Below are positions 28,550-60,614 of a DNA stretch of 64,000 bases, in pieces (position 1 is the first letter of the stretch; every line of letters begins with the position of its first letter). Where the stretch lies: assembly GCA_041651015.1 (NCBI GenBank), contig JBAZKA010000001.1, positions 62,000 through 125,999 of the forward strand. The letters are read 5' to 3'. The notes below the pieces were generated by a model, which worked only from the letters and a program-made list of their open reading frames with translations, did no database searches and had not been told where the DNA came from. Made by a program: the position numbers and the translations under genes. This DNA comes from Patescibacteria group bacterium. GTDB taxonomy: Bacteria > Patescibacteriota > Patescibacteriia > Magasanikbacterales > GWA2-37-8.

Positions 28550-31500
28550 ATGTCGGAGAAATTCAGACCCATGCCGGAGGAGGCAAGGGGGGAAATAAAA
28601 TCGGAAAAACCGAGTGATATTAAGGTTGAAAAAAATGATAATATTGAAAAGGAAAAATTACCGCAAGTGGACAAAGAGACCGGAATTTATACGGATGAGA
28701 ACGGAGAGGAGTGGGCAACGGTAAGTATGGTCGTAAAGTTGTTGGGTTTAAGCGGCGCTGTATTTACCAAAGAACGTCTCTCAGGTGTCCGCTCAATTCG
28801 CGGGCGTGATGGTACGGGTAAGTCCGTCAATCTATTAAATTTAACTGATATAAAAATTTTTTTTGCAGACCATTTGCGGTTACCTCAAGTAGACAAAGAA
28901 ACCGGTATTTATAAGGATGAAAATGGAGAGCAATGGGCGACAGCGCCAGCTGCTGCCGAGCTATTTGGGTTTGGCGCTGACATGTTATCTAAGGAGCGTC
29001 TCGCCTACGTCCGTTCAATACGTGGACGAAGCAGAAGCGGTAATTTCGTTAATTTGTATAATCTCACCGACCTCAGAAATTATTTTGCAGACCATTTGCG
29101 GTTACCTCAAGTAGACAAAGAAACTGGTATTTATACGGATGAGAATGGAGAGCAATGGGTAACGTTAAAAACGGCATCTGACATTATCGGAGTTTATGAG
29201 GTGATGATTACTAAGAAACGTTTGTCCAAAGTCCGTTCAATTCGTGGCCGCGATAGGGTCGGCCGCGGCCCCAATCATGGTCAGCCGAATAACCTATTTA
29301 ATTTATCTGACCTGAAAAAGTTGTTTGCAGACCATTTGCGGTTACCTCAAGTAGACAAAGAAACTGGTATTTATACGGATGAGAATGGAGAACAATGGGT
29401 AGCGTTAAAAACGGCATCTGACATTATCGGAGTTTACCAGGTGATGTTTACTGAGAAACGTTTGTCCAAAGTCCGTTCAATTCGTGGCCGCGATAGGGTC
29501 GGCCGCGGCCCCAATCATGGTCAGCCGAATAACCTATTTAATTTATCTGACCTGAAAAAGTTGTTTGCAGACCATTTGCGGTTACCTCAAGTAGACAAAG
29601 AAACTGGTATTTATACGGATGAGAATGGAGAGCAATGGGCGACAAAAAGTGCCGCGGCAAAGTTTTTTATGTTAGACGTAAAGTTGTTTACTAAAAAACG
29701 TCTTTTTAGTATACGTGCGATACGTGGCCGCGGTGCTGGAATTAGCTCTCCCGAACCCGGTCAACTGGGCAACCTATTTAATTTATCTGACCTGAAAAAG
29801 TTGTTTGCCGATTATCTACATCTGCCACAAGTGGATAAGGAGACCGGTATTTATACGGATGAAAACGGAGAGCGGTGGGTGGCGCGTGCCACAGCAGCAA
29901 AAATGTTTGGTGTAGACGTCGTAACTCTTACCGCACTGCGCTTGTCTCAAGTACGTTCAATTCGCGGCCGCTATAAGGATGGTCGTGCTCCTGAATTTGG
30001 TCAGCCGAATAATTTATTTAATCTCTCCGACCTAGAAAAAGTTTTTGCCGATTACATTACCCAGAAAAAAGGATCCGCTCAAGACCGCGAACTCCGTGAA
30101 TCATTTGATAAAAAAATTAACGAGATCGCGGACGGAGAAACATTTGACGCGCAAAAATTCCGTTCACTGGTAGATGCTTTTGGCGCGGCGCGATGCGTAG
30201 ATATTTTATATCGTCTTTATCCGGAATTTAAAGGCTTGCCGATTGAGCACATCAAGGGAACAATGGCCGATTATCTCGGGGATTTTTTAATTGCCAAAGG
30301 CGATTTTCATCCGAGAAATTGGGGAGACATTGAACCGTTTTTGTCTGATGTAACTTTTCGCGAGTCATTGTACGAAACCGTCAAGGACCATTGTTTACGG
30401 TATTTTTTTATTAAGAAACGCGAAGAACCGCAGAGAGATAATTTGGAAATAATTTATGAGTATTTGGATAATGCCGCGAGCGAGGTCCAAGGAATTGACA
30501 GTAAAGAGTTGGATGACATAATCCAGAACGTGATTGAGTATTATGATGCGGCCATACGTGATTTTGAAAAACCCGAAGGTTTTAAAGACCGTTTGACGAC
30601 TGACCGGGAATTTCCCGACATCAATCAAAAAATAAACATGAAAGAGCTATCCGACAAGAAACGAATTTTGATTGCCGATGAAATGGGTTTGGGCAAAAGT
30701 GCCTCGGTCATTATGGCCAAAGAACAGCTCGGCGTGGCTTGCGCGCTGGTCACGGCGCCGGCCAATGTGATTGAAACCTGGAAAAAATATTTATCCGATG
30801 AAGACGGCGGGTATTATCTGGAGGGCAAAGCGCCAAAAGTTTTGAGCATAGAAAAGTCCGAAGATTTGGACCGAACGGCGAGTGAACAATTTGATTTCAT
30901 ATTGATCTCGCATGAACGTTTGTCTGCCGGCGCGGATATTGTGGAGAAGTTATCCCTGGCCGGATTTGATATGCTCGTCGTGGATGAAGCGCATAAAATG
31001 AAAAATCCCAAGGGCCAGCGGGCCGAGCAGGCCTTGGAACTCGCGGCTTCGCTTGACCCGGAAACGGGATATTTGGCCCTGTTGTCCGGTACGCCGGTGC
31101 CGAATAAAGTCGGTGATATCGCCATAGCTTTGAAAATGCTATATCCGGATAAATTTGCCGATGTTCCGGCTGAAGAATTGTCCGGCCAAATTATCAGCGG
31201 AGATATTTTGGATCTGCGTAGTTTGCTTATGCCACGAATGCAAATGAAAGATTTGCGAGAGAGTATTGACATGCCCGAGCTGACGGAAACCATTGTGCCG
31301 ATTTCGTTGTCGCCGGAAGAGCGGGATATTTATGAAGCGTTGCTGGAAGACGATGAAGTGACAGCCACGGAAAAAATGAAAATTCTGCGTCAATTTTTGC
31401 TTAATCCCGATTTGGTCGTACTTGACCCGAATTTGGAAAGCTCAAAGATTCGCGCTTGTCGCGAGAGATTAAACGAAGCTTTCGCCGAACACGATAAAGT

Positions 31501-33028
31501 TGTGATGTTCGTAAATAATTATTTGGAAGGCGTAGTCCGAGGGGAGACCGATATATTTGATAAATTAAATTTATCGGATGACATTCGGGTGATTAAGATT
31601 CATGGCAATGTGCCGATGACAGAGCGTAAAAAGATTGAACAAGAATTTAACGAGAGCGGTGAAAAAATATTACTGGTCGTAAGCGGGCAGACAGCCGACG
31701 TGGGCGTGGATTTTTCCAACGGCCAAAAAGTAATTTTTTATAACGAGCCGTGGACCGAGTACCAAAGAAGACAAGAATTGGGTCGCGTTTTTCGTCCGGG
31801 AGTAAAAGATAATTTGGATAGCGAGGTTTTGGTTGCCGAAAAAACCATAGAGCAAGGCATCCATGAGTATATCTGGCGCAAATATAAAGCGGTGGAAAAG
31901 CTTTTGCGCGGCGTACCGATTACTGAATTGGAAAAAACACTGTTAAATAAAACCGAACAAGCCGAAGACCCGGACTTGGAAGTTAATCCGGAGCTGGCGC
32001 GTTATTATCTTTCTTGTTGGGACAAGATGATGCAGTATTTCGGTTATGCCAAAGAACTTGGCGAGGCAAAATTTGAAAAGTTTTTGGCTGATTACGGGCG
32101 CGATTATGCCGAAGGCTACCGTGAGCTCGGCAATCGCAGTTATCAGGCGAACGCGAATAGAATTTCCGGCGCGATGATTGAACATGTTGCCGCGCAAAAT
32201 AAAATATCCGCCAAAGATCTTAAAATATTGGACATGGCCTCTGGTCCGGAAATGCTTAGGCGCCACATCGCGGATGATTTACAAAATAGCGTCGTGAGTT
32301 TGGATATCAATCCACATCATCTGCAGAATGCTTCAGGGGATGTTATAAATGCGAGCGCTCGTAAAACCCCGTTTAAAGATAAAAGTTTTGATTATGTAAA
32401 TTATGCGCTCGCTTGGCACTATGGTAAATTTGTTCCGTCACGAAGCGATTTTGAACGCGCGGAAATTTTGGCCGAAGCCAATCGCGTCTTAAAAAACGAC
32501 GGCCGTTTGGTTTTGAGTTTGATTTACTCGGTAAATGTGGCGGATGAAGAAAAATTCATTGCCGCGGTTAATGAGTTGGGGTTTGAGATTGACTCCGAAC
32601 ACAGTGGGGAAGCCGTCAGCGAAAATGTGTTTCGTTCAAAAATTTATACCCTTAAAAAAGTGCGTGATTTGGATAAATCTCCGGCCGAGGCGGCGTCGGA
32701 GATTAGTCCGGATAATTATCCCGGGATGAAAATTCGCACCGACAAGGGTTCGTTAAAAAATTCGCGTAAAATCGTCGGCGGCTTTACCTTGAACGGTCAA
32801 GAAGTCGCGGTTGATCTGAACAGCGCCGACAAAGAAGCGTTGGACGAGGAGCGAAATGTTAGCCAAGAGATGAAGACGTTGAAAGATAAATTTGAAGGGA
32901 TAAAAAATATTCCGCGAGCAGAGATATTGTCCAATAAGTTCGCGCGCATTTTAATCGGGAAAAAGTTTGCTTTGTTCAAAAAACTGGAACGTGGCAGCGG
33001 CGCGGTTGTTATTAAAGATGAAAATTAA
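28550..33028 (+). CDS. Giant multidomain protein: six tandem ~80-aa N-terminal repeats + SNF2-family helicase + C-terminal class I SAM methyltransferase
   Basis: 1492 aa. Repeats LPQVDKETGIYTDENGEQW...VRSIRGRD...NLFNLSDLKKLFADHLR x6. SNF2_N with ADEMGLGKS and DEAH box LVVDEAHKMKN. Helicase-C VVSGQTADVGVDFSNGQKVIFYNEPWTEYQRRQELGRVFRPG. MTase motif I ILDMASGPE, acidic post-I VVSLDIN, LKNDGRLVL. Start overlaps the ligA stop. Confidence 0.75.
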   Translation: MSEKFRPMPEEARGEIKSEKPSDIKVEKNDNIEKEKLPQVDKETGIYTDENGEEWATVSMVVKLLGLSGAVFTKERLSGVRSIRGRDGTGKSVNLLNLTDIKIFFADHLRLPQVDKETGIYKDENGEQWATAPAAAELFGFGADMLSKERLAYVRSIRGRSRSGNFVNLYNLTDLRNYFADHLRLPQVDKETGIYTDENGEQWVTLKTASDIIGVYEVMITKKRLSKVRSIRGRDRVGRGPNHGQPNNLFNLSDLKKLFADHLRLPQVDKETGIYTDENGEQWVALKTASDIIGVYQVMFTEKRLSKVRSIRGRDRVGRGPNHGQPNNLFNLSDLKKLFADHLRLPQVDKETGIYTDENGEQWATKSAAAKFFMLDVKLFTKKRLFSIRAIRGRGAGISSPEPGQLGNLFNLSDLKKLFADYLHLPQVDKETGIYTDENGERWVARATAAKMFGVDVVTLTALRLSQVRSIRGRYKDGRAPEFGQPNNLFNLSDLEKVFADYITQKKGSAQDRELRESFDKKINEIADGETFDAQKFRSLVDAFGAARCVDILYRLYPEFKGLPIEHIKGTMADYLGDFLIAKGDFHPRNWGDIEPFLSDVTFRESLYETVKDHCLRYFFIKKREEPQRDNLEIIYEYLDNAASEVQGIDSKELDDIIQNVIEYYDAAIRDFEKPEGFKDRLTTDREFPDINQKINMKELSDKKRILIADEMGLGKSASVIMAKEQLGVACALVTAPANVIETWKKYLSDEDGGYYLEGKAPKVLSIEKSEDLDRTASEQFDFILISHERLSAGADIVEKLSLAGFDMLVVDEAHKMKNPKGQRAEQALELAASLDPETGYLALLSGTPVPNKVGDIAIALKMLYPDKFADVPAEELSGQIISGDILDLRSLLMPRMQMKDLRESIDMPELTETIVPISLSPEERDIYEALLEDDEVTATEKMKILRQFLLNPDLVVLDPNLESSKIRACRERLNEAFAEHDKVVMFVNNYLEGVVRGETDIFDKLNLSDDIRVIKIHGNVPMTERKKIEQEFNESGEKILLVVSGQTADVGVDFSNGQKVIFYNEPWTEYQRRQELGRVFRPGVKDNLDSEVLVAEKTIEQGIHEYIWRKYKAVEKLLRGVPITELEKTLLNKTEQAEDPDLEVNPELARYYLSCWDKMMQYFGYAKELGEAKFEKFLADYGRDYAEGYRELGNRSYQANANRISGAMIEHVAAQNKISAKDLKILDMASGPEMLRRHIADDLQNSVVSLDINPHHLQNASGDVINASARKTPFKDKSFDYVNYALAWHYGKFVPSRSDFERAEILAEANRVLKNDGRLVLSLIYSVNVADEEKFIAAVNELGFEIDSEHSGEAVSENVFRSKIYTLKKVRDLDKSPAEAASEISPDNYPGMKIRTDKGSLKNSRKIVGGFTLNGQEVAVDLNSADKEALDEERNVSQEMKTLKDKFEGIKNIPRAEILSNKFARILIGKKFALFKKLERGSGAVVIKDEN
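28658..30050 (+). repeat. Tandem ~240-bp in-frame DNA repeats (6 units) within the 5-prime part of the giant gene
   Basis: Units 29127-29340 and 29367-29580 are about 97 percent identical at the DNA level; the motif TTTGCAGACCATTTGCGGTTACCTCAAGTAGACAAAGAAAC recurs every ~240 bp. Confidence 0.85.
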
Positions 33029-36248: not shown

Positions 36249-38039
36249 TTATTGCGCTTTTCGTGAGGCGCGGATACGGTCGTTTTCTGTCAGGTTTTGT
36301 TTGCGTAAACGGACGGCTGTGGGTGTAATTTCCAAATATTCGTCCTCGGCCATAATTTCTAAACCTTTTTCCAAAGTAATTTCTTGCGGAGCGGTGAGTT
36401 GAATAGCAAAATCCGCGCCCGATGAGCGCATGTTGGTTAATTTTTTACCGCGGATCGGATTGACGGTCATATCAAAGCCTTTGGCTGTGTTGCCAATCAC
36501 TTGTCCCTCGTAGATATCAGTGCCGGCCGGAATAAATAATGAACCGCGGTCCTGCAGGGCGGCCAATGAATACGATAAAGCTTTGCCCGTCTCGCCCGAT
36601 ATCATAGAACCGGTGGAGCGTTTTTCAATCTCACCCGCATACGGACGGAAGCCGATTACTTCGGAACATAAAATTCCTTCACCGCGCGTGTCCACGATAA
36701 ATTCATTACGATAGCCCAAAAGTCCGCGCGTGGGAATTTCGTAAATCAAACGGGTGTGGTTTTGTTCCGGATGCATGTTGGTCATCCGGCCTTTGCGTTT
36801 GGATAATTTTTCAATCACCACACTGACGGATTCAGCCGGCACATCTACAGTCGCTTCTTCAAACGGTTCGTGCTTCATCCCGTCAATTTCTTTGACAATG
36901 ACTTGCGGTTGGGAAACTTGTAATTCAAAACCTTCACGGCGCATATTTTCCAAAAGAATGGCGATGTGTAATTCGCCCCGGCCAAAAACTTTGTAATGGT
37001 CAATCGGAGAAAAATCTATTTTCAAACCAACGTTCACTTCCAATTCTTTTTCCAAGCGTTCTTTGATTTGTCGGCTGGTGACGTATTTACCTTCGCGCCC
37101 GGCAAAAGGGGAGTTGTTAACTAAAAAATTCAAAGAGATGGTCGGCTCGTCAATCCTGATGGCCGGCAATAATTCCTGATTTTGGTCCACGCAAATTGTG
37201 TCGCCGATATAAATGTCGGGCAGACCGGCCAGCATGACAATATCGCCCGCGTCCGCGTTTGGCACTTCTTTTTTACTCATGCCTTCAAAAGTATAAATTT
37301 TTGTGATTTGCCCGGGTATAATTTGGCCATCGGATTTTTTTACAAACACGCGTGAACCGGAACCGATCGTGCCTTGCACCACGCGTCCGATACCCATACG
37401 TCCGAGGTAATTATCATAAGCCAGATTAAACGGCTGAAAAGTAAAAGGCAAGGTCGCATCAGCTTGAGCCGGCTCCACTTTTTCCAGAATCGTATCCAAA
37501 AGAGGAATCAGGTTGTCTGACTCATCGGCTAAATTCATTTTGGCAATGCCAAGTTTGGCAATGGCATAAACCGTGGTGAAATTTAATTGCGCGTCAGTCG
37601 CGCCCAGATCCATAAACAATTCCAAGACCTTTTCGTGCGTCCATTCCGGGCGAGCGGCCGGTTTGTCAATCTTGTTGATAACCACAATCGGCTTGATACC
37701 CAGTTCCAATGATTTTTTTAACACAAATTTGGTCTGGGGCATCGGGCCTTCCTGAGCGTCCACCACGAGGAGTACGGAATCAATGGAGCGCAAGATGCGT
37801 TCCACTTCCGAACCAAAATCCGCGTGTCCGGGCGTATCCACGATGTTGATTTTCACGCCTTTATAAAATAACGAAGCGTTCTTTGAGTAAATCGTAATAC
37901 CACGCTCTTGTTCCAGCGCGTTGGAGTCCATACTGGCCGAGTCATCTTTCATCATGCCGGTTTGGCGCATCAAAGCATCGGTCAATTTGGTTTTGCCGTG
38001 GTCCACGTGGGCGATAATAGCGATGTTTCTAATTTCCAT
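36249..38039 (-). CDS. typA: Translational GTPase TypA/BipA (ORF track extends to 38132; Met at 38039 matches the BipA N-terminus)
   Basis: G1 motif [20 protein letters not shown]; EF-G-like domain order; about 596 aa. Confidence 0.9.
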
Positions 38040-38164
38040 ATAATTTTTTTGTTTCCTTTTCATCATTATATAGCGATGAGGTGGAATTGGGCGAGTATAC
38101 ACTAAAAAACGGATGTTGTCAACTGATTGCAAGCAAATATGCGAAGTGTTATAATATTGTCCGT

Positions 38165-39100
38165 ATGCTTAAAGTCATAGTGAAAAAATCCCCAATAGCG
38201 GGCAAGGGTATCTTTGCCGCGCAGAATTTCAAAATAGGTGAAGTGGTTTTTGTTTTACACGGACCGATAATCAAATATCCAACTGTGCCAGACTGGCGCA
38301 ATGGTCAAAATTGGCTTAATATTGCGAAGTTTACTTGGAAAATTCCCGACCATGATAATGTTTGGAATTATATTAATCATTCTTGCCGCCCAAATTCTTT
38401 ATTAACCGGCGGTACCAAAGTAGTCGCCATACGTCCCATTAGTAATGGGGACGAAGTCGTTATTGACTATTCTTGCACGGAAGCGGTCGCCGCTTGGAAG
38501 ATGAAATGCCATTGCCGACAAAAAAATTGTCGCGGCGTGATACGAAGTATCCAGTATTTGCCAAAAAATTTATTTGAGAAATATAAAAATTACATCCCGC
38601 TCTTTTTAAAGAAAGAATATTTGCAACATAAATTTTATTCCGGCCGCGCAAAGAGTGGCAGTCCGGCGATTTTCGCCAAGCAGATGATAATAAAAAATGA
38701 GACCATCTTTATAATCAAGGGACCGGTAATCAAATACACACGTCCGCCCCGTTATCAGATAGGCTATCATTGGCTGGGAATATCCAAAAATATTTGGCTG
38801 ATACCGTTTAGGAACAATCCTTGGTGGCAACTGCGTCACTCTTGCGATCCGAATGTTGGTTTAAAGGATAAAACGAAAGTTGTCGCCATGCGAGATATCA
38901 GAGCGGATGAAGAATTGGTGGTTGATGATTCTATTACGGAAGCCGATATAAAGTGGCACTTTGCCTGTCATTGCGGCTCAAAAAAATGTCGGAAGACGGT
39001 AAAATCAATACAGTTTTTGCCTCAAGCACTATTCAAAAAATACAAGCCATATATTCCTGATTTTTTCCGGCAGGAATATCTAAACAGTCGCAAAATCTGA
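38165..39100 (+). CDS. Tandem double SET-domain protein (putative protein-lysine methyltransferase); ORF track starts at 38081, Met at 38165 preferred
   Basis: Two complete SET modules: INHSCRPNS ... DY ... CHCRQKNCRG and LRHSCDPNV ... CHCGSKKCRKTV, each with GxG start (AGKGIFA) and post-SET Cys cluster. Confidence 0.7.
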   Translation: MLKVIVKKSPIAGKGIFAAQNFKIGEVVFVLHGPIIKYPTVPDWRNGQNWLNIAKFTWKIPDHDNVWNYINHSCRPNSLLTGGTKVVAIRPISNGDEVVIDYSCTEAVAAWKMKCHCRQKNCRGVIRSIQYLPKNLFEKYKNYIPLFLKKEYLQHKFYSGRAKSGSPAIFAKQMIIKNETIFIIKGPVIKYTRPPRYQIGYHWLGISKNIWLIPFRNNPWWQLRHSCDPNVGLKDKTKVVAMRDIRADEELVVDDSITEADIKWHFACHCGSKKCRKTVKSIQFLPQALFKKYKPYIPDFFRQEYLNSRKI

Positions 39101-39139: not shown

Positions 39140-39412
39140 TCACAAACTCCGATAAATATCGTGTTTACCGATAGAGATAAATAAAATATCTCCGTTTGGT
39201 TCGCGTTCAAAAATAATTCTGTATCCGCCGGTAATGGAAATTGACCAAAGACCGTCCAACTTTCCTTGAAGGCCGTGCAAACGCAGGGACGGGTGCAGGG
39301 GATTGCTCTTGAATATATTTTCTTTCTTCGCGGCGAGCGCGATTAGTTCGGGCGGTAATTTTTTTAATTCCGCGACAAATTTTGAAGAATATAAAATTCG
39401 CGCAATGTTCAT
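39140..39412 (-). CDS. RelE/ParE-family type II toxin
   Basis: 90 aa; ...LRLHGLQGKLDGLWSISITGGYRIIFE ... IGKHDIY pattern typical of RelE/ParE-fold plasmid-stabilisation toxins. Confidence 0.7.
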   Translation of the reverse strand: MNIARILYSSKFVAELKKLPPELIALAAKKENIFKSNPLHPSLRLHGLQGKLDGLWSISITGGYRIIFEREPNGDILFISIGKHDIYRSL

Positions 39413-39636
39413 ATCAAATCGGCCAGAGATTTGGCTTTGATTGATTTGCCGGCGCGGTATTCATTACGGGCTTCGCACACATTTTTCAAAAGTTCAGCTT
39501 CGGAAATTGAATCTTTGTCAGTCTGAAATAGATATTTTACATAGGAACTCACCGAAGCATAACCGCGTTTTTTGGCGGTTTGTTTCATTTCCCGCGCGTC
39601 AACCGCGGGCAGAGATAATGACATTATTTGGCGCAT
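39409..39636 (-). CDS. Cognate antitoxin (RHH/ParD-like), overlaps the toxin start by 4 nt
   Basis: 75 aa immediately upstream of the toxin in canonical antitoxin-toxin order; small charged protein. Confidence 0.55.
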   Translation of the reverse strand: MRQIMSLSLPAVDAREMKQTAKKRGYASVSSYVKYLFQTDKDSISEAELLKNVCEARNEYRAGKSIKAKSLADLI

Positions 39637-42258: not shown

Positions 42259-42287
42259 TTTACTTTTAACTTGCCGCGAAGCGGCGG

Positions 42288-42681
42288 TGGAGATGGCGAG
42301 AGTCGAACTCGCGTCCAGATGGCCACGCCACAGCCGTCTACATGCTTAGTTCTCTTATTTTTAACCAAACTGTATTCAGAGAACGAAAATTCGTTTGGCG
42401 TGCCGGCTTTGCCTTTCAATTACTTCACCTCCGGCTCGGTTGGTAATCTACGCCTGATGATTTGCGCCGCGTTTAGTTACCAGGTGTGGCTAAGGCGACG
42501 GAAGCGGCAATTAAGCCGCGACAGGAGCAAAACTCATCGCCGGGCTAAAAGCTCGAGCAATGGATGTTTTGACTTTTGAAAATAAGTTGGCACTTATTAT
42601 TTGGTCCATGTATTTACGAGGGTTGGACCGACCTCGGCATGCGAACTATAACGCCGGTCTCTGTCAAAGCCCGGCATCCCC
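42288..42681 (-). ncRNA. ssrA: tmRNA (ssrA)
   Basis: Minus strand starts GGGGATGCCGGGCTTTGACAGAGACCGG... and ends ...GGACGCGAGTTCGACTCTCGCCATCTCCA (tRNA-like T-arm and acceptor). A candidate tag ORF beginning at nt 91 reads GCC AAC ... GTC GCG GCT TAA (ends ...FAPVAA-stop). Lies 2 nt downstream of the smpB stop. Confidence 0.85.
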
Positions 42682-53729: not shown

Positions 53730-54818
53730 ATGAAGACGAAATTGGCATTTGCGATTTTCGCGATGGTGATGGTGGCGACGGGGTCGGCAATGGCGCAATG
53801 GGCGCAGGAGCCGATGGACGATCTAAAGACCCTGCAACAGTGCAGGGCATCGTTCAAAAACGTGTGCGCGCCCTGCGCAAGCGTTTTCGCTTCCGGCCAG
53901 CTGAGTGCCACGTGCACCATGGAAAAGGCACAGGCGTGCGGCGAAGTCTACACCGGCATCTGCGGTCAGACCGCGAAAGCCGCTGCGACAACGTCGCCGT
54001 CCGTGCCGCCGAAGTGCGACGACAGATGTAGGGAGCGTCGCAAGGCCCGACAGGAAAAGTGGAATGCGCTCTTCCTGGACATGGCGGACCTGAAGGTCCG
54101 CGTGGCCGCCCTGGAAAGGAGAGCGGACGAGAACGACACACGCGACGCGGCGAATGCCGCGCACGACAGCGACCAGGACAACCTGATTGCTGGTCTTCGC
54201 AAGGACGTGGACGGCCTCCTGGATTGTCATGGTGAAAATCCGAAGGCGGGTTGCCACCAGGCAATTGAGGAGCAGATCGATGAGGCGAAGAAGGAGGCGA
54301 TGGACTACACGGATATGATGTTCATATCCACCGCCTTCAAGTTCGACCTCGGAGCGGTCGTCCTCGGCTCCACGGATTTCCGAGGGGTTGGGATCATAGC
54401 TGGCGGATTGCGCATTGCTCTTGACTTCGGCGCAACCGATCGGTTCCGTCCCGTTTTCCACGCTTCGGTTGGCGGTGGTCACGGACGGTGGGCAAACGTG
54501 GTTTGGGAAGTCGGCACTTCCCAGGAAATTCGTGTTAACGACAAGGGGACTGTCTGGCTAGGGCCGGCGGTCACCTGGTCACACGAAAACGTCCTGGACG
54601 CCAACTACAACACGTTCCTCGGCCTCGGCCTCTCCCTCAGAGTGTTGTTCCCCGAGAGCCACCACGGGTATTTTACCGCGGCGGTCTTCGGCGGTGACAA
54701 CATGTACTTCGTCCCGGACAAAACGGGCGAGTACGATGAGGTCATGGCCCATCACTTCGGAATTGGGATCCAACTCTCGGTTGGATACTCCATTTTCCAA
54801 GACCTCCGCAAGAAGTAG
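53730..54818 (+). CDS. Secreted protein: signal peptide + Cys-containing N-region + coiled-coil + C-terminal beta-rich domain (paralog of 51087-52424)
   Basis: RBS GGAGAG; MKTKLAFAIFAMVMVATGSAMAQ signal peptide; same architecture as 51087-52424. Confidence 0.5.
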   Translation: MKTKLAFAIFAMVMVATGSAMAQWAQEPMDDLKTLQQCRASFKNVCAPCASVFASGQLSATCTMEKAQACGEVYTGICGQTAKAAATTSPSVPPKCDDRCRERRKARQEKWNALFLDMADLKVRVAALERRADENDTRDAANAAHDSDQDNLIAGLRKDVDGLLDCHGENPKAGCHQAIEEQIDEAKKEAMDYTDMMFISTAFKFDLGAVVLGSTDFRGVGIIAGGLRIALDFGATDRFRPVFHASVGGGHGRWANVVWEVGTSQEIRVNDKGTVWLGPAVTWSHENVLDANYNTFLGLGLSLRVLFPESHHGYFTAAVFGGDNMYFVPDKTGEYDEVMAHHFGIGIQLSVGYSIFQDLRKK

Positions 54819-55007
54819 TAGTTCTCCTGTCTTTTACGGTCAGGGTATTCGCAAGAATATCCTGACCGACCTTATCTTGATCAAAAATGGTTTTGGTCAA
54901 GTAGGGGAAAATACTTAGTTAGTTGCTTGACAATTAAATTAAGGGTTAGAAAAACGTTCGTGGACAAAGCCAGCGCGCGGCGTTGGTTTCAAAAAAGGGA
55001 GAACAAA

Positions 55008-56378
55008 ATGAAGAAGTTTTACGGAATGATGATTGTTGCTATGATGGCGGTCGGATGCAACGAAGGCTACGGCATCGGCGATAAGTTTTTCGCTGAAGTC
55101 GACGCCGGTTCGGACACCGACACGGACACCGACACCGATACGGACACGGATAGCGACAGCGACACCGATTCCGATACGGACACGGACACCGACACGGATA
55201 CCGATACCGACACCGATTCCGATACGGACACGGACACCGACACGGATACCGATACCGATACGGATACGGACACGGGCGAGTGCGAGGATGGTGAAGAGCA
55301 GTGTGACGGAAACATGGTTCAGGTTTGCGGCGACGACCACGAGTGGGCGAACTGGGACGAGTGTCTCGCGTCTGCTCACAAGGAGTGTGTCGAGGCCAGC
55401 TCGACCTCCGCGAACTGCGACTGCGTCTCCGGTTACCACCTGTCCGCAGGCAACTGTGTCGCGGACACGGTCGTGATCTGCACCGCTGGCTACGAGGAAT
55501 GTGACACGGATGGAAACGTTCTGGTTTGCAACTCGGCCGGCACTGCGTGGGTGGTGGACGACACTTGCCTCGCCACGAACCATGAAGAGTGTATCGAGGC
55601 CAGCTCGACCTCCGCGAACTGCGACTGCGTCTCCGGTTACCACCTGTCCGCAGGCAATTGTGTCGCGGACACGGTCGTGGTCTGCACGGCCGGCAACAAG
55701 GAGTGCGACACGGCCGGCAACGTTCTGGTTTGCAACTCGGCCGGCACTGCGTGGGTGGTGGACGACACTTGTCTCGCCTCCGCTCACGAGAAGTGCGTCG
55801 AGACCAGCTTGACCTCTGCCTCGTGCCAGTGCGTGGATGGGTACTATCTGTCCGTGGGTGTCTGCATCGCGGACACCGACACTGACACCGACACTTCGGT
55901 CGAATGCACGGACGACGGTGGCGAGTGCGCCTTGGGTTACGAATGTAAGGCGGGGCATTGTGAAATGCCCTGCGACTGGGAGAACCCTTGTGACATGGCC
56001 TCCGGTTTAGAATGCTTTTTGACCGGCAAGGATCCCGACCAGAACTGGAAGTTCTCCGGGATCTGTCTTCCCATGCCGGCGGCAACGGGCGAATTCAGTT
56101 CCGTATGGTACTACGACATGGAACTGGAGAACGATGAGGACACGGGTACGTGTGCGTATTACGATACGTACTCTCCGTCCCCGACGGAGTACTCGTCGCC
56201 AGACACCGCCGCGGCCAGCATCATGTGCACCGATAATTCGTCGGTGCCGTGGGTCATGGAGGGCGAGTTCGAAGATCCGAGCACGTCGTCCGCTCGGACC
56301 CACCTGATCGCCCACGGCGATCATAACCACCAGATGACGACTTTCGGGCGTATCCTGTATACGCCCCCCGTCCTCTGA
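55008..56378 (+). CDS. Lipoprotein with (Thr-Asp/Ser-Asp)n tracts and tandem EGF-like Cys-rich modules (ORF track from 54927; Met at 55008 with GGGAG RBS)
   Basis: Lipobox MMAVGC; ~55 residues of TD/SD dipeptide repeats; two and a half near-identical modules containing CDCVSGYHLSAGNC (CxCxxGYxLxxxxC, EGF-like). Confidence 0.6.
   Translation: MKKFYGMMIVAMMAVGCNEGYGIGDKFFAEVDAGSDTDTDTDTDTDTDSDSDTDSDTDTDTDTDTDTDTDSDTDTDTDTDTDTDTDTDTGECEDGEEQCDGNMVQVCGDDHEWANWDECLASAHKECVEASSTSANCDCVSGYHLSAGNCVADTVVICTAGYEECDTDGNVLVCNSAGTAWVVDDTCLATNHEECIEASSTSANCDCVSGYHLSAGNCVADTVVVCTAGNKECDTAGNVLVCNSAGTAWVVDDTCLASAHEKCVETSLTSASCQCVDGYYLSVGVCIADTDTDTDTSVECTDDGGECALGYECKAGHCEMPCDWENPCDMASGLECFLTGKDPDQNWKFSGICLPMPAATGEFSSVWYYDMELENDEDTGTCAYYDTYSPSPTEYSSPDTAAASIMCTDNSSVPWVMEGEFEDPSTSSARTHLIAHGDHNHQMTTFGRILYTPPVL
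55110..55275 (+). repeat. Hexanucleotide (GACACN/GATACG)n microsatellite encoding the TD/SD tract
   Basis: About 27 consecutive GAYWCN hexamers visible in the sequence. Confidence 0.9.
55357..55760 (+). repeat. Tandem ~200-bp near-identical direct repeats encoding the EGF-like modules
   Basis: 55360-55560 and 55570-55760 align with few mismatches. Confidence 0.8.
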
Positions 56379-56486
56379 CATGTTCTTTGAGCCTCGAATT
56401 CCTTTCGAGGTATATGCCCGGGCAGAGCTTATCTGCCCCAATCATATGGCATCATTTATCTCTCAAATGATCCCAGATGTAAACAA

Positions 56487-57478: not shown

Positions 57479-57700
57479 ATGATGTTAAAATTAAAGGGAC
57501 AAATGCACGCGATTTGACGGTGAGAGAGCCGTAAAATTCGCATAAATTTGAAAAAACTCTCTCACGGGAGTTTTGTTTGAGTGGAGTTGTCGCTCGGATG
57601 CAAATTGTATCAAAGCGACAGGGCCGCCCCCTCAACATGGGTATATCATAGTCATGTTGAGGGGGTTGCTCTCCCTATGCCTTTGCGTTTTATGCGCGTG
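57479..57700 (+). ncRNA. Structured leader / candidate sRNA copy 2 plus a 13-bp perfect hairpin
   Basis: GTGAGAGAG...CTCTCTCACGGGAGTTTTGTTTG is analogous to 53395-53470; hairpin CCCCCTCAACATG...CATGTTGAGGGGG at 57622-57664. Confidence 0.4.
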
Positions 57701-57817
57701 GCCAAAAGAGTTTCTTTGACAATTTAATTATTGGATTTAGTTAGTTTGAGATAAGGAAAACAACCAAATGCGATTTTGGAAATCGCAAAAGATTCCGGAA
57801 ACGGAATGGAGGAAGAA

Positions 57818-60490
57818 ATGGAAAAGAGATTTTTGTTTTGTTTCGTTGCCATCGTCGCGGCTATCGCGTGTTCGCCGAACACACGAGAGCCCCATCAGTC
57901 GGTAGTGCCGCCGGATTCAGATTCGTCTACGTCCGACACGGATACCGACACCGACACGGACACAGATTCCGACACAGATTCCGATTCGGATAGCGACAGC
58001 GATTCCGACACGGACACGGACACCGACACCGACACGGACAGTGATTCGGATACGGACAGCGACACGGATACGGATTCGGACACAGATTCGGATTCGGATA
58101 CGGATAGCGACACGGATTCGGACACGGACGTGGACGCCGGCACGGATGCCGGCACCGATGGCGGGACCGATGGCGGTCTCGACGGCGGTTCGGATACCGA
58201 CACGGATACGGATAGCGATTCCGATTCTGACACAGACTCGGATAGCGACACGGATTCGGACGCCGGAACCGACGGTGGCGTAGAGCCGACCGAGTGCTCC
58301 AGTGGCGTTTGCTGCGACACGGTGACCGGACTCTTCAAGGACGATACCGTCATTTGCGGGACGTCGTTAGAGTTGAGGTGCGATGACACCGGTTGCAGCG
58401 CTGACGTTAGGAATGCCTACGTCATTACCAGCTGTCCCGGATATTCCGAGGACTGCGAAGGAATAGAGGAGGTGTTTACCAGCAGCGTCGTGGACGACTG
58501 CGGTGACAATGAAACCTGCGAAGCTTCCACCGCTCTCTGCGTCGAATGTGAGTTCGGCTGTGAAGACGATTCCTTTGGAGTCGGAACGTGCAGCGAAGAA
58601 CCCATCGTCATTGACGCCGGAGTGGACTCCGGAACTTCGGACACCGACACCGACACGGACAGTGATTCGGATACGGACAGCGACACGGATACGGATTCGG
58701 ACACAGATTCGGATTCGGATACGGATAGCGACACGGATTCGGATACGGACGTGGACGCCGGCACGGATGCCGGCACCGATGGCGGGACCGATGGCGGTCT
58801 CGACGGCGGTTCGGATACCGACACGGATACGGATAGCGATTCCGATTCTGACACAGACTCGGATAGCGACACGGATTCGGACGCCGGAACCGACGGTGGC
58901 GTAGAGCCTCCGACCGAGTGCGTGGCTGACGACCCGTGCTGTGACAGCGAGGGGTTCTACCTCGCCAACGGCACCGAGTGCGACGGTGGTACTGTGCTCT
59001 CGATCTGCGAGAGCGGGTACTTCTGTGACGGCGTCGGCGATTGCATGCTCGAGTACGTCCCCGCGTCGGACAATAAGGTCTGCGATAGCGATATCGCCGA
59101 CCTTTGTGACGCCGTGGATTACTGCGACGGTAGCGGAGGTTGCCCAGACGCGGTCCTGTCGTACGGCGATGATTGTCATGCATCCGAAGGGGCGTGTGAC
59201 GTTCAAGACATCTGCAACGGGCTCGGCAAGGATTGTCCTGATGAGCTTCTCGTCGGCGATACCTGCCGACCGGCCGTTGTTGGTGGATGCGACATCGCGG
59301 AGACCTGTTCTGGTTCTTCTCCGGACTGTCCGGCTGACGTGGTTGCTTTGGCAACGACTGTCTGCCGTGCGGCATCCGGGGTTTGCGATAAGGCCGAGAA
59401 CTGCACAGGCAGTTCGGCTACTTGCCCGGCGAACACGTTTGAGTCGGCCGCCACAGTGTGCGCGTCCAGTTACGTGTATCAGTGCAACGGCAATCTGTGC
59501 GGGTCCGATGCTCAACGGCGTCTGGTGAGGCAGTATTGTACTGGTAGCGCGGCTGCTTGCAGTGGCACTATCTACTACAACCCCTGGACCACCATCGCCA
59601 ACTGCGACGCATCGGCCATCTGCATTTCCACTTCTACCTCAGCCATGTGTTCCGAGTGCGGTTACGCTTGCCAGGACATCCCGGCAGGGACGTGTGTTGG
59701 TGAAGAAGGACAGCCGTGTGCCGAAGCTCCTTTCGAGGAGTGCGAAAGCGACGACCTGTTCTGCGACACCGACGACGTCTGCAGTGATGCTCCGGACGGC
59801 GGCATTGCCGACGGTGGCGTAGACGGTGGTTCCGATACGGACACCGACGCAGATACCGACACGGACACGGATACGGATAGCGATTCGGACACGGATGCCG
59901 ATGCCGGCCTTGATGGCGGCTCGGATACGGACACCGATAGCGACACGGATTCCGATTCCGACAGCGATGCCGGTACTGACACGGACACTGAGACTGACAC
60001 GGATACCGACACGGGCACCGAAGGAACTTTCTGTCTTGAAAAAGCAGACTGTTCCGAGGGAGAGTACTGCAATCTGGAGACGAGCCTCTGTACGCTCGTG
60101 CCGGAGTTCCCGTTACCTGCGGGACAGTACTTCTATTGCTGGGGATACAACATCACTCATGATCCCAGCAATGTGGTGTCGCAGTGCACGACAAGCTCTA
60201 CTTCCACTTGCACCTACTACGATCCGGCGGCGTCACAGCAGTATTCCGCCACGGTGTCGCTCTACTGCATCTTGGATCAGTACGGCACCACGTCCACCCC
60301 CACCTGTCCCGCGGTGCAGGACATCGGCGAGTGTTGCATCTCCGGGCAGACTGATTTCGTTGCGCGGTACGCCGCGCCGGAAGAATGCAACGACGCTGAC
60401 ACGGACAACGATCCGGTTGGTGGATGTTCTTCCTACCGCCAATGCTTGAGGGGAAGTGATGGTCACTTCCTCGCCGAAGGCCTGTTCTAG
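57818..60490 (+). CDS. Large lipoprotein with three (TD/SD)n-GTDGG tracts and multiple Cys-rich repeat modules (ORF track from 57776; Met at 57818 with GGAGGAAG RBS)
   Basis: Lipobox VAAIACS; Asp-rich dipeptide tracts; ~24-aa Cys motifs (CDxxxxCDGxGxCPD) repeated at least 6 times; about 890 aa. Confidence 0.6.
58021..58905 (+). repeat. Two ~270-bp near-perfect direct repeats (58021-58290 and 58636-58905) inside the lipoprotein gene, each largely composed of GAYWCN hexamers
   Basis: The two copies differ at about one position by eye; a third related tract lies at 59823-60020. Confidence 0.9.
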
Positions 60491-60614
60491 GCCTTTCCCG
60501 CCTTGTTCTAAAAAATCCAATAATCCGTTCATTCCCAAAAATAGCCCCGGACAGTCCGGGGCAATCACCATGAAATCGTCTTGACTCTCTCCTTGACGAT
60601 TTCAGTTGATATAC

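Follow-up and report, generated by a model that had tools for sequence, protein, structure and literature searches.

Bacterial SET proteins have mostly been discussed as single-domain enzymes or as secreted, histone-mimicking effectors. Here, we analyze a protein with two SET modules in one chain, encoded on the forward strand at positions 38165..39100 of a 64,000-nucleotide stretch of DNA (the window) from a Patescibacteria group bacterium (GenBank assembly GCA_041651015.1, contig JBAZKA010000001.1, positions 62,000 to 125,999). An earlier note, made from the sequence alone, had singled out this 311-residue product as a tandem double-SET protein of a small-genome organism. Profile and structure searches both detected the two halves, and the protein is 100% identical to MFA5127452.1 (NCBI; 'MAG: SET domain-containing protein-lysine N-methyltransferase [Patescibacteria group bacterium]'), a match to a Patescibacteria metagenome-assembled genome (MAG) that supports the small-genome assignment. 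The existing database annotation is that of a generic SET lysine methyltransferase. As we describe below, only the N-terminal (N) half has the motifs of an active enzyme; the C-terminal (C) half appears to be a conserved, degenerate copy.

In SET enzymes, the cofactor S-adenosylmethionine (SAM) is held in all structures by five backbone hydrogen bonds together with the side chain of a single conserved asparagine, and the lysine channel is completed by a catalytic tyrosine that lies at the domain's C-terminal end and faces the methyl-transfer site (PMC3178901, a review of human SET proteins). In MLL1 (KMT2A), the SET region makes up a single domain within a giant eukaryotic protein, and it requires WDR5, RbBP5, and ASH2L. 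vSET (PBCV-1 A612L), a minimal viral enzyme, is cited as an exception among SET enzymes because it works as a dimer (PMC8704517); its two active subunits associate non-covalently as a homodimer, and it has no zinc post-SET segment. BurB, a Burkholderia SET-domain methionine S-methyltransferase, belongs to the dimethylsulfoniopropionate (DMSP)/malleicyprol pathway. Single-domain prokaryotic SET proteins (Go1-SET of Methanosarcina, cpnSET/NUE of Chlamydia, BaSET, and proteins named 'nuclear protein SET') belong to the same superfamily and have a unit of ~170-185 residues; substrates reported for prokaryotic SET proteins include nucleoid proteins (MC1-alpha, Hc1) or host histones (PMC3980110). 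Inactive eukaryotic SET domains with non-catalytic roles are described for MLL5/KMT2E (PMC5094779) and C. elegans SET-24 (PMC12886896). Our literature search returned no description of a bacterial tandem of SET and pseudo-SET domains, no report tying SET domains to Patescibacteria, and no characterized member of the family analyzed here.

A SET domain fused to a degenerate copy

The modules and motifs of the tandem SET gene are given below. Residue counts refer to an alignment of 36 family members, and secondary structure and predicted local distance difference test (pLDDT) scores refer to an AlphaFold2 model built with a 36-sequence alignment.

38165..39100, + strand: tandem SET gene, 311 amino acids, including the stop codon at 39098-39100 (open reading frame listing and sequence; homologues share the same start methionine)
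38165..38476, + strand: N-terminal SET core, residues 1-104, carrying the full set of catalytic motifs (Pfam match at residues 13-103, 43 bits; pLDDT >90)
38201..38209, + strand: GxG cofactor loop of the N half (G13-K-G15, within IAGKGIFA; G13 and G15 invariant, 36/36)
38375..38395, + strand: NHSCRPN of the N half, residues 71-77 (N71, H72, and C74 invariant, 36/36)
38465..38470, + strand: D101-Y102, with the putative catalytic tyrosine of the N half (invariant, 36/36; aligned with the DY of MLL1; role per PMC3178901)
38507..38530, + strand: post-SET CxCx4C of the N half, CHCRQKNC, residues 115-122 (C115, C117, and C122 invariant, 36/36)
38546..38629, + strand: strand and two-helix hairpin after the post-SET segment, residues 128-155 (IRSIQYLP..LF.KY..YIP.FL; DSSP on the model)
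38630..38935, + strand: C-terminal core, residues 156-257, a putative pseudo-SET (Pfam, 27.2 bits; secondary-structure pattern as in the N half)
38834..38854, + strand: RHSCDPN of the C half, residues 224-230, with Arg for the cofactor-binding Asn and with the His and zinc Cys retained
38924..38929, + strand: D254-D255 of the C half, with Asp in place of the catalytic Tyr
38966..38989, + strand: post-SET CxCx4C of the C half, CHCGSKKC, residues 268-275 (C268, C270, and C275 invariant, 36/36)
39005..39097, + strand: second strand and two-helix hairpin, residues 281-311 (consensus iRSiQfLP..lf.kY.Pyip.f.q..Y)

The Pfam SET profile (PF00856; gathering score 22.4 bits) matched the protein twice, scoring 66.1 bits with the whole sequence and, when the halves were scanned separately, 43.0 bits with the N half alone and 27.2 bits with the C half alone. 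Pfam detected no domain besides SET, the NCBIfam scan gave only sub-threshold noise, and no PADLOC defense-system model matched at E ≤ 0.01. The two halves aligned with each other over 142 residues at 46% identity without a gap (BLASTP E 1e-46). Because there are two separate Pfam matches and a gapless self-alignment at this level, the internal repeat is real and not a chance cluster of cysteine-rich motifs. Each half has four putative zinc ligands (C74, C115, C117, and C122; C227, C268, C270, and C275), all conserved in 36/36 members, and both halves can be classified from their motifs as SET domains with a zinc-binding post-SET segment of the MLL/SET1-like kind.

The N half carries every sequence feature of an active SET/post-SET enzyme, with G13, G15, N71, H72, C74, D101, Y102, C115, C117, and C122 invariant throughout the alignment. 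Asn71 and His72 are predicted to bind the cofactor (the Asn role is taken from PMC3178901), and Cys74 is the predicted SET-core zinc ligand. The C half differs precisely at catalytic positions. The GxG motif is absent (SGSPAIFA versus IAGKGIFA of the N half), with the first glycine kept in 1/36 members. The asparagine position is occupied by R in 23 members, K in 7, N in 3, Q in 2, and D in 1, and the tyrosine position by D in 29, N in 4, and Y in 3. The Asn and Tyr singled out in PMC3178901 are exactly the two side chains substituted. By contrast, the C half retains the motif His in 35/36 members and the SET Cys, the P and N of the motif, and the three post-SET Cys in all. Overall, the C half is degenerate in 33/36 aligned members and, lacking the GxG, Asn, and Tyr features expected for catalysis, is best called a pseudo-SET on present sequence evidence. 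Thus, the earlier picture of two complete SET modules stands for the post-SET CxCx4C but holds for NHSCxPN and DY only in the N half; the catalytic tyrosine and SAM-binding residues are intact there, whereas the C half has R224, D255, and no GxG.

The AlphaFold2 model had a mean pLDDT of 93.7, a predicted template modeling (pTM) score of 0.80, and no segment with pLDDT below 50. In each modeled module, a β-rich SET core is followed by the post-SET segment and then by a short strand and a hairpin of two helices, which lie at residues 134-143 and 146-154 in module 1 and at 287-296 and 299-310 in module 2 (DSSP). Module 1 ends in a helix and module 2 opens with a strand (157-161); just two residues, with pLDDT of 90-95 at the junction, separate these elements. 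The model has no flexible linker between the modules, and the hairpin runs straight into the second SET fold. For two domains of equal size, we take a pTM of 0.80 to imply that the modeled modules hold a defined mutual orientation. The SET fold opens with a β-strand at about residue 3-4, which leaves no room for an N-terminal signal peptide. A Foldseek search of the PDB with the model returned 369 chains at E ≤ 0.001, among them the SET domains of MLL1-4, BurB, ASH1L, NSD, and vSET; all 50 matches listed of these 369 were SET-domain methyltransferases or complexes containing one.

Comparison with described SET enzymes

The best match of the N half was the SET and post-SET region of MLL1 (PDB 2W5Y, 5F5E, 7W6A; Foldseek E 5.8e-10; 27-29% identity over ~140 residues), and phmmer comparisons of the N half/whole protein gave E 2.6e-10 with MLL1 and E 2.2e-5 with vSET. 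MLL1 and the N half share GxG, NHSCxPN, and DY, as well as a CxCx4C in the post-SET segment that, with the SET Cys, makes up a zinc site. Unlike MLL1 with its separate partner proteins, the window protein has a fused pseudo-SET as its partner, and its post-SET segment is followed by the two-helix hairpin. vSET has a similarly small SET core (30% identity; template modeling score 0.74 on vSET length) but pairs two active subunits non-covalently, whereas the window protein has two folds in one chain, one of them without catalytic residues; the shared point is that two SET folds would make up one functional unit. MLL5 and SET-24 are stand-alone pseudo-SETs in chromatin proteins, whereas the bacterial pseudo-SET described here is fused to an apparently active paralogue. 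Single-domain prokaryotic SET proteins have one active domain per chain, unlike the tandem family; the first hairpin (residues 128-155) is conserved in single-domain relatives, the nearest of which (P0041-P0073) share the C-terminal IRSIQFLP..Y..IP..F element. NHSC and DYS are retained in all of the stand-alone relatives that we checked for them.

The C half found its best solved-structure match in BurB (PDB 9L4T, 9L4V; E 5.7e-8), which, like the window protein, combines a small bacterial SET domain with a post-SET segment. BurB also lacks the canonical Asn (LLHSC) but, unlike the C half with its Asp, keeps the Tyr (Y124). The Y124F variant of BurB is more than 60% active, but Y124A is almost inactive, so an aromatic residue is needed at this position (PMC12542666). 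For adenine, BurB relies on the His of NHSC and on a His of the post-SET segment; for the methionine end of SAM, it uses a mobile N-terminal loop (Gln37-Ala44) whose counterpart we take to be the GxG region. Of these features, the C half retains the first adenine His (equivalent to BurB H93) and has lost the loop motif. It has no equivalent of Tyr124, and no DMSP or bur pathway genes were found at the 14 loci compared below. From these substitutions, methyl transfer by the C half has likely been lost. Several properties of BurB and of the C half itself weigh against this conclusion. The activity of Y124F shows that at least one SET enzyme can do without the Tyr hydroxyl (PMC12542666). Leu at the Asn position leaves BurB active, so the Asn change alone proves nothing. 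Finally, given the retained His and post-SET segment, residual binding of SAM or S-adenosylhomocysteine (SAH) by the C half is possible.

Conservation and origin of the tandem family

A word-indexed search of 5.8 billion proteins returned 37 full-length relatives (308-365 amino acids; 43-59% identity; coverage at least 95%), as well as P0022, whose called product is N-terminally truncated, a more distant double-SET protein (P0040; 34% identity), and a large set of single-domain relatives of 171-201 amino acids. Going by source names and by a scan of the species genomes in GTDB, the tandem family occurs in Candidatus Magasanikbacteria, Uhrbacteria, Kerfeldbacteria, Peribacteria, and unclassified Patescibacteria; eight genome loci were in MAGs of the Candidate Phyla Radiation (CPR). 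One MAG with the family is labeled Saccharibacteria and one Gammaproteobacteria. In the latter (L013, 4989..5943), a frameshift in the inter-module linker, beside a G5 run, divides the tandem SET gene into two overlapping open reading frames. A sequencing error, a pseudogene, or natural division into active and pseudo-SET polypeptides could account for this, and the Gammaproteobacteria label may be a binning error.

Within the family, the C half is at least as well conserved as the N half. Mean pairwise identity was 0.51 for the C half versus 0.485 for the N half, and 0.58 versus 0.51 for the post-SET segment. The C half keeps 16 invariant positions across sequences that are 41-59% identical, has a conserved signature of its own (tiDDSITEADp.Wk), and is full-length in every intact member listed. 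On these values, the C half is not decaying or drifting, and this pattern points to purifying selection.

We compared all halves and single-domain relatives in a neighbor-joining tree. The N halves formed one clade and the C halves its sister clade, both adjoining single-domain proteins of 172-190 amino acids (P0041-P0048, P0051). As the N and C halves form sister clades, the family was founded by one ancient tandem duplication. At the DNA level, the best stretch shared by the two halves was just 17 nucleotides, which indicates that the duplication is old; a recent duplication was rejected on the same ground and because the N and C halves fall in separate deep clades. A tblastn search found no second SET gene in the window. 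The sole two C halves in the family that keep both Asn and Tyr (P0019 and P0020) are basal in the C clade, as would be expected had degeneration followed fusion. The two halves of P0040 are each other's nearest relatives, marking an independent duplication, and both appear intact.

Among the single-SET proteins retrieved, the Asn/aromatic pair was NY in 165, NW in 16, and NF in 1. Asp at the tyrosine position occurred among single-SET matches only in two fragments of 87 and 93 amino acids, both of which match the C half of the family, so the degenerate module was not seen on its own. The 16 single-domain relatives in which a conserved Trp replaces the catalytic Tyr include P0086 ('THDWATAD').

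We also searched 1.84 billion cluster representatives (50% identity) exhaustively with a family profile (HMMER; 14,858 matches at E ≤ 0.001) and delimited SET units in the retrieved proteins with a hidden Markov model of the N half. At least 43 further representatives had two or more SET units, almost all of them among the best 150 matches, and duplication of a SET domain is thus less unusual than the earlier note had supposed. Most of the other tandems are about 330-420 amino acids long with NH..DY intact in both units (P0128, P0149, P0174, P0257), and a few have a degenerate unit (P0168, P0171, P0231). Longer proteins (P0121, P0126, P0219, P0206, and P0252; 618-1479 amino acids) contain 4-8 SET-like units in which NH..(D/N)Y-type units alternate with strongly degenerate ones. 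The window protein resembles the intact tandems and the P0121/P0126 arrays in having several SET and post-SET units per chain. SET units have thus been fused repeatedly in this branch of the superfamily, mostly as independent events. What is particular to the window family is a fixed, lineage-wide arrangement of an active and a degenerate module.

Proposed function and alternatives

We think it rather more probable than any other account that the tandem SET protein is a cytoplasmic, SAM-dependent SET protein methyltransferase, most likely specific for lysine, in the form of a single-chain pseudo-heterodimer of an active N-SET and a scaffolding or docking pseudo-SET; here, we infer N-half activity, C-half inactivity, and the scaffold or docking role. 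In this model, the N module (residues 1-155) would be the enzyme, binding SAM and methylating a lysine of a cellular protein by means of the GxG loop, the cofactor-anchoring Asn and His, the Tyr of DY as the completing element of the lysine channel, and the zinc-bound post-SET segment. The C module (156-311) derives from tandem duplication of this unit and has kept the fold, putative zinc site, and helical hairpin; with Asn changed to Arg/Lys, Tyr changed to Asp/Asn, and GxG lost, it would most probably not transfer methyl groups. The pseudo-SET may pack rigidly on the N-SET, replacing the second subunit of an ancestral homodimer, and alternatively or additionally may dock the substrate through a retained and highly conserved peptide-groove segment, DDSITEADPxW. 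The recurrent fusion of SET units and the dimeric precedent of vSET fit a pseudo-heterodimer without proving it. The protein is very basic (pI 9.83, with 52 Lys and Arg versus 23 Asp and Glu; family median pI 9.74), which fits an acidic or nucleic-acid-associated target without proving one. The very basic pI, the lack of room for a signal peptide, and the housekeeping loci are weak indications that the substrate is a protein of the bacterium itself.

Two alternatives concern what the C half does. It could be an enzyme-derived binding module whose former lysine channel, with the conserved Asp-Asp and Arg as its present lining, recognizes a lysine or methyl-lysine of the substrate or senses SAM or SAH, a role that we consider unlikely. 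We give a similarly low chance to a bifunctional protein with two active SET modules, in which the modified site of the C half (Arg, Asp) would methylate another acceptor, such as a small molecule or a non-lysine residue. The conservation of the C half, which extends to its substitutions (D in 29/36 and R or K in 30/36), its adenine-contacting His and whole zinc post-SET segment, and the precedent of BurB, a bacterial SET enzyme that methylates a small molecule without the Asn and is the best solved match of the C half, would all be in keeping with a second activity. The reported BurB mutants, however, require an aromatic residue where the C half has none, the nearly inactive Y124A being the telling case. 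Moreover, stand-alone relatives all have Y, W, or F at that position, save the two fragments; the GxG loop is gone, down to its first Gly in all but one of the 36 members; and no metabolic gene cluster adjoins the gene at the 14 loci. That the C half is a functionless relic of duplication, its decay incomplete, is a very improbable explanation and was already disfavored: three catalytic signatures have been lost, but the 16 invariant positions, the zinc site, a mean identity above that of the N half, and the full length of the C half in intact members are hard to reconcile with it.

The remaining alternative concerns where the protein acts. It could be an effector that an episymbiont exports, conceivably by a non-classical route, to methylate host proteins, for example chromatin-like ones, as NUE, RomA/LegAS4, and BaSET do. 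The organism is represented by a Patescibacteria MAG, and many episymbionts belong to this group. Secreted SET effectors of bacteria are, in addition, well documented (PMC3980110). Nevertheless, export appears improbable, and more so than a second activity of the C half. There is no space for an N-terminal signal peptide; the NCBIfam model T4SS_AnkI (AnkI/LegAS4) scored 11.2 bits against a cut-off of 550, and Pfam detected nothing but SET; the loci have no secretion genes or conserved neighbors and are of a housekeeping kind (typA, alaS-infA-rpsM, thyA-folA); and the family tracks CPR lineages, with single-domain relatives in the same phylum. The suggestion in the earlier note of a host or chromatin-like target thus drew no support from signal-peptide space, effector-family matches, or conserved neighbors at the 14 loci.

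Precedents exist for the fold, the chemistry, and the tandem architecture, and the family is not by itself a new type of system. It is a conserved CPR lineage in which a SET domain, apparently active, carries a degenerate copy of itself as a permanent fusion partner. If the pseudo-SET is a required partner, then the protein would be a clean prokaryotic enzyme/pseudoenzyme pair in the SET superfamily, with a logic comparable to that of METTL3/METTL14, and this requirement would also account for the repeated evolution of tandem SETs. If the pseudo-SET is instead a binding module, then the protein would be a one-chain bacterial read-write or allosterically gated device for protein methylation and would show minimal prokaryotic SET enzymes to be obligate dimers. 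The small size and confidently predicted structure of the protein make it a target for studying protein methylation in ultra-small bacteria.

Gene start and genomic surroundings

The start codon at 38165 is preceded by a promoter-like site.

38127..38155, + strand: sigma-70-like promoter, TTGCAA-17-TATAAT with an upstream TG (consensus scan, 10/12 matches; putative function)

This site ends 9 nucleotides upstream of the ATG, with no Shine-Dalgarno sequence in between, and for these two reasons the mRNA is probably leaderless or nearly so. A GTG start at 38081, which would give a protein of 339 amino acids, was rejected; homologues begin at the Met of MLKVIVKK, and the strong promoter would lie inside the extension. 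At the homologous loci L001, L009, and L010, a -10-like box also lies within about 0-12 nucleotides of the start.

In the window, the SET gene is divergent from typA/bipA (36249..38039, - strand). Downstream on the minus strand are a RelE/ParE-like toxin and antitoxin, an XRE regulator, a DUF2178 membrane protein, tRNA-Asp, rplT, rpmI, infC, transfer-messenger RNA (tmRNA), and smpB. The RelE/ParE/HigB-like toxin and its partner (together 39140..39636, - strand) are convergent with the SET gene; the toxin has 89 amino acids and weak Pfam matches, and the overlapping upstream partner has 74 amino acids and no Pfam match. Toxin-antitoxin or Fic modules flank the SET gene in L016 and L017 as well. 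The tmRNA (42285..42681, - strand), which smpB adjoins, has an unusually long predicted tag peptide, ANLFSKVKTSIARAFSPAMSFAPVAA.

We compared context at 14 independent loci (the window, L001, L003, and L006-L017) using called genes with Pfam matches and all-against-all BLASTP of open reading frames. No neighbor was conserved across these loci. Because the SET gene alone recurs, it behaves as a stand-alone unit. Neighbors elsewhere included FtsJ/SLH/GidB, thyA-folA-dCMP deaminase/NUDIX, alaS/GtrA/infA-rpsM, and Fic or toxin-antitoxin genes, and typA/bipA adjoined the SET gene at two loci, the window and one other. Ribosomal or translation genes were near the SET gene in the window, L003, and L015 but not in L014, L016, or L017. 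We rejected genomic context as a guide to the substrate, since translation genes are abundant in CPR genomes and proximity to them is uninformative.

Elsewhere in the window, positions 28550..33028 (+ strand) encode a 1492-residue SNF2-related helicase (SNF2-rel_dom and Helicase_C) fused to a C-terminal class-I SAM methyltransferase (Methyltransf_11), with no confident domain in the N-terminal ~690 residues. Two GC-rich islands, 54000..56400 (GC 0.58) and 57700..60500 (GC 0.60), stand out from the ~0.44 of the rest of the window. Their open reading frames at 54927..56378 (483 amino acids) and 57776..60490 (904 amino acids) gave only weak EGF/disintegrin-like Cys-rich matches, overlap many long antisense open reading frames, and may encode foreign or repeat-rich surface proteins.

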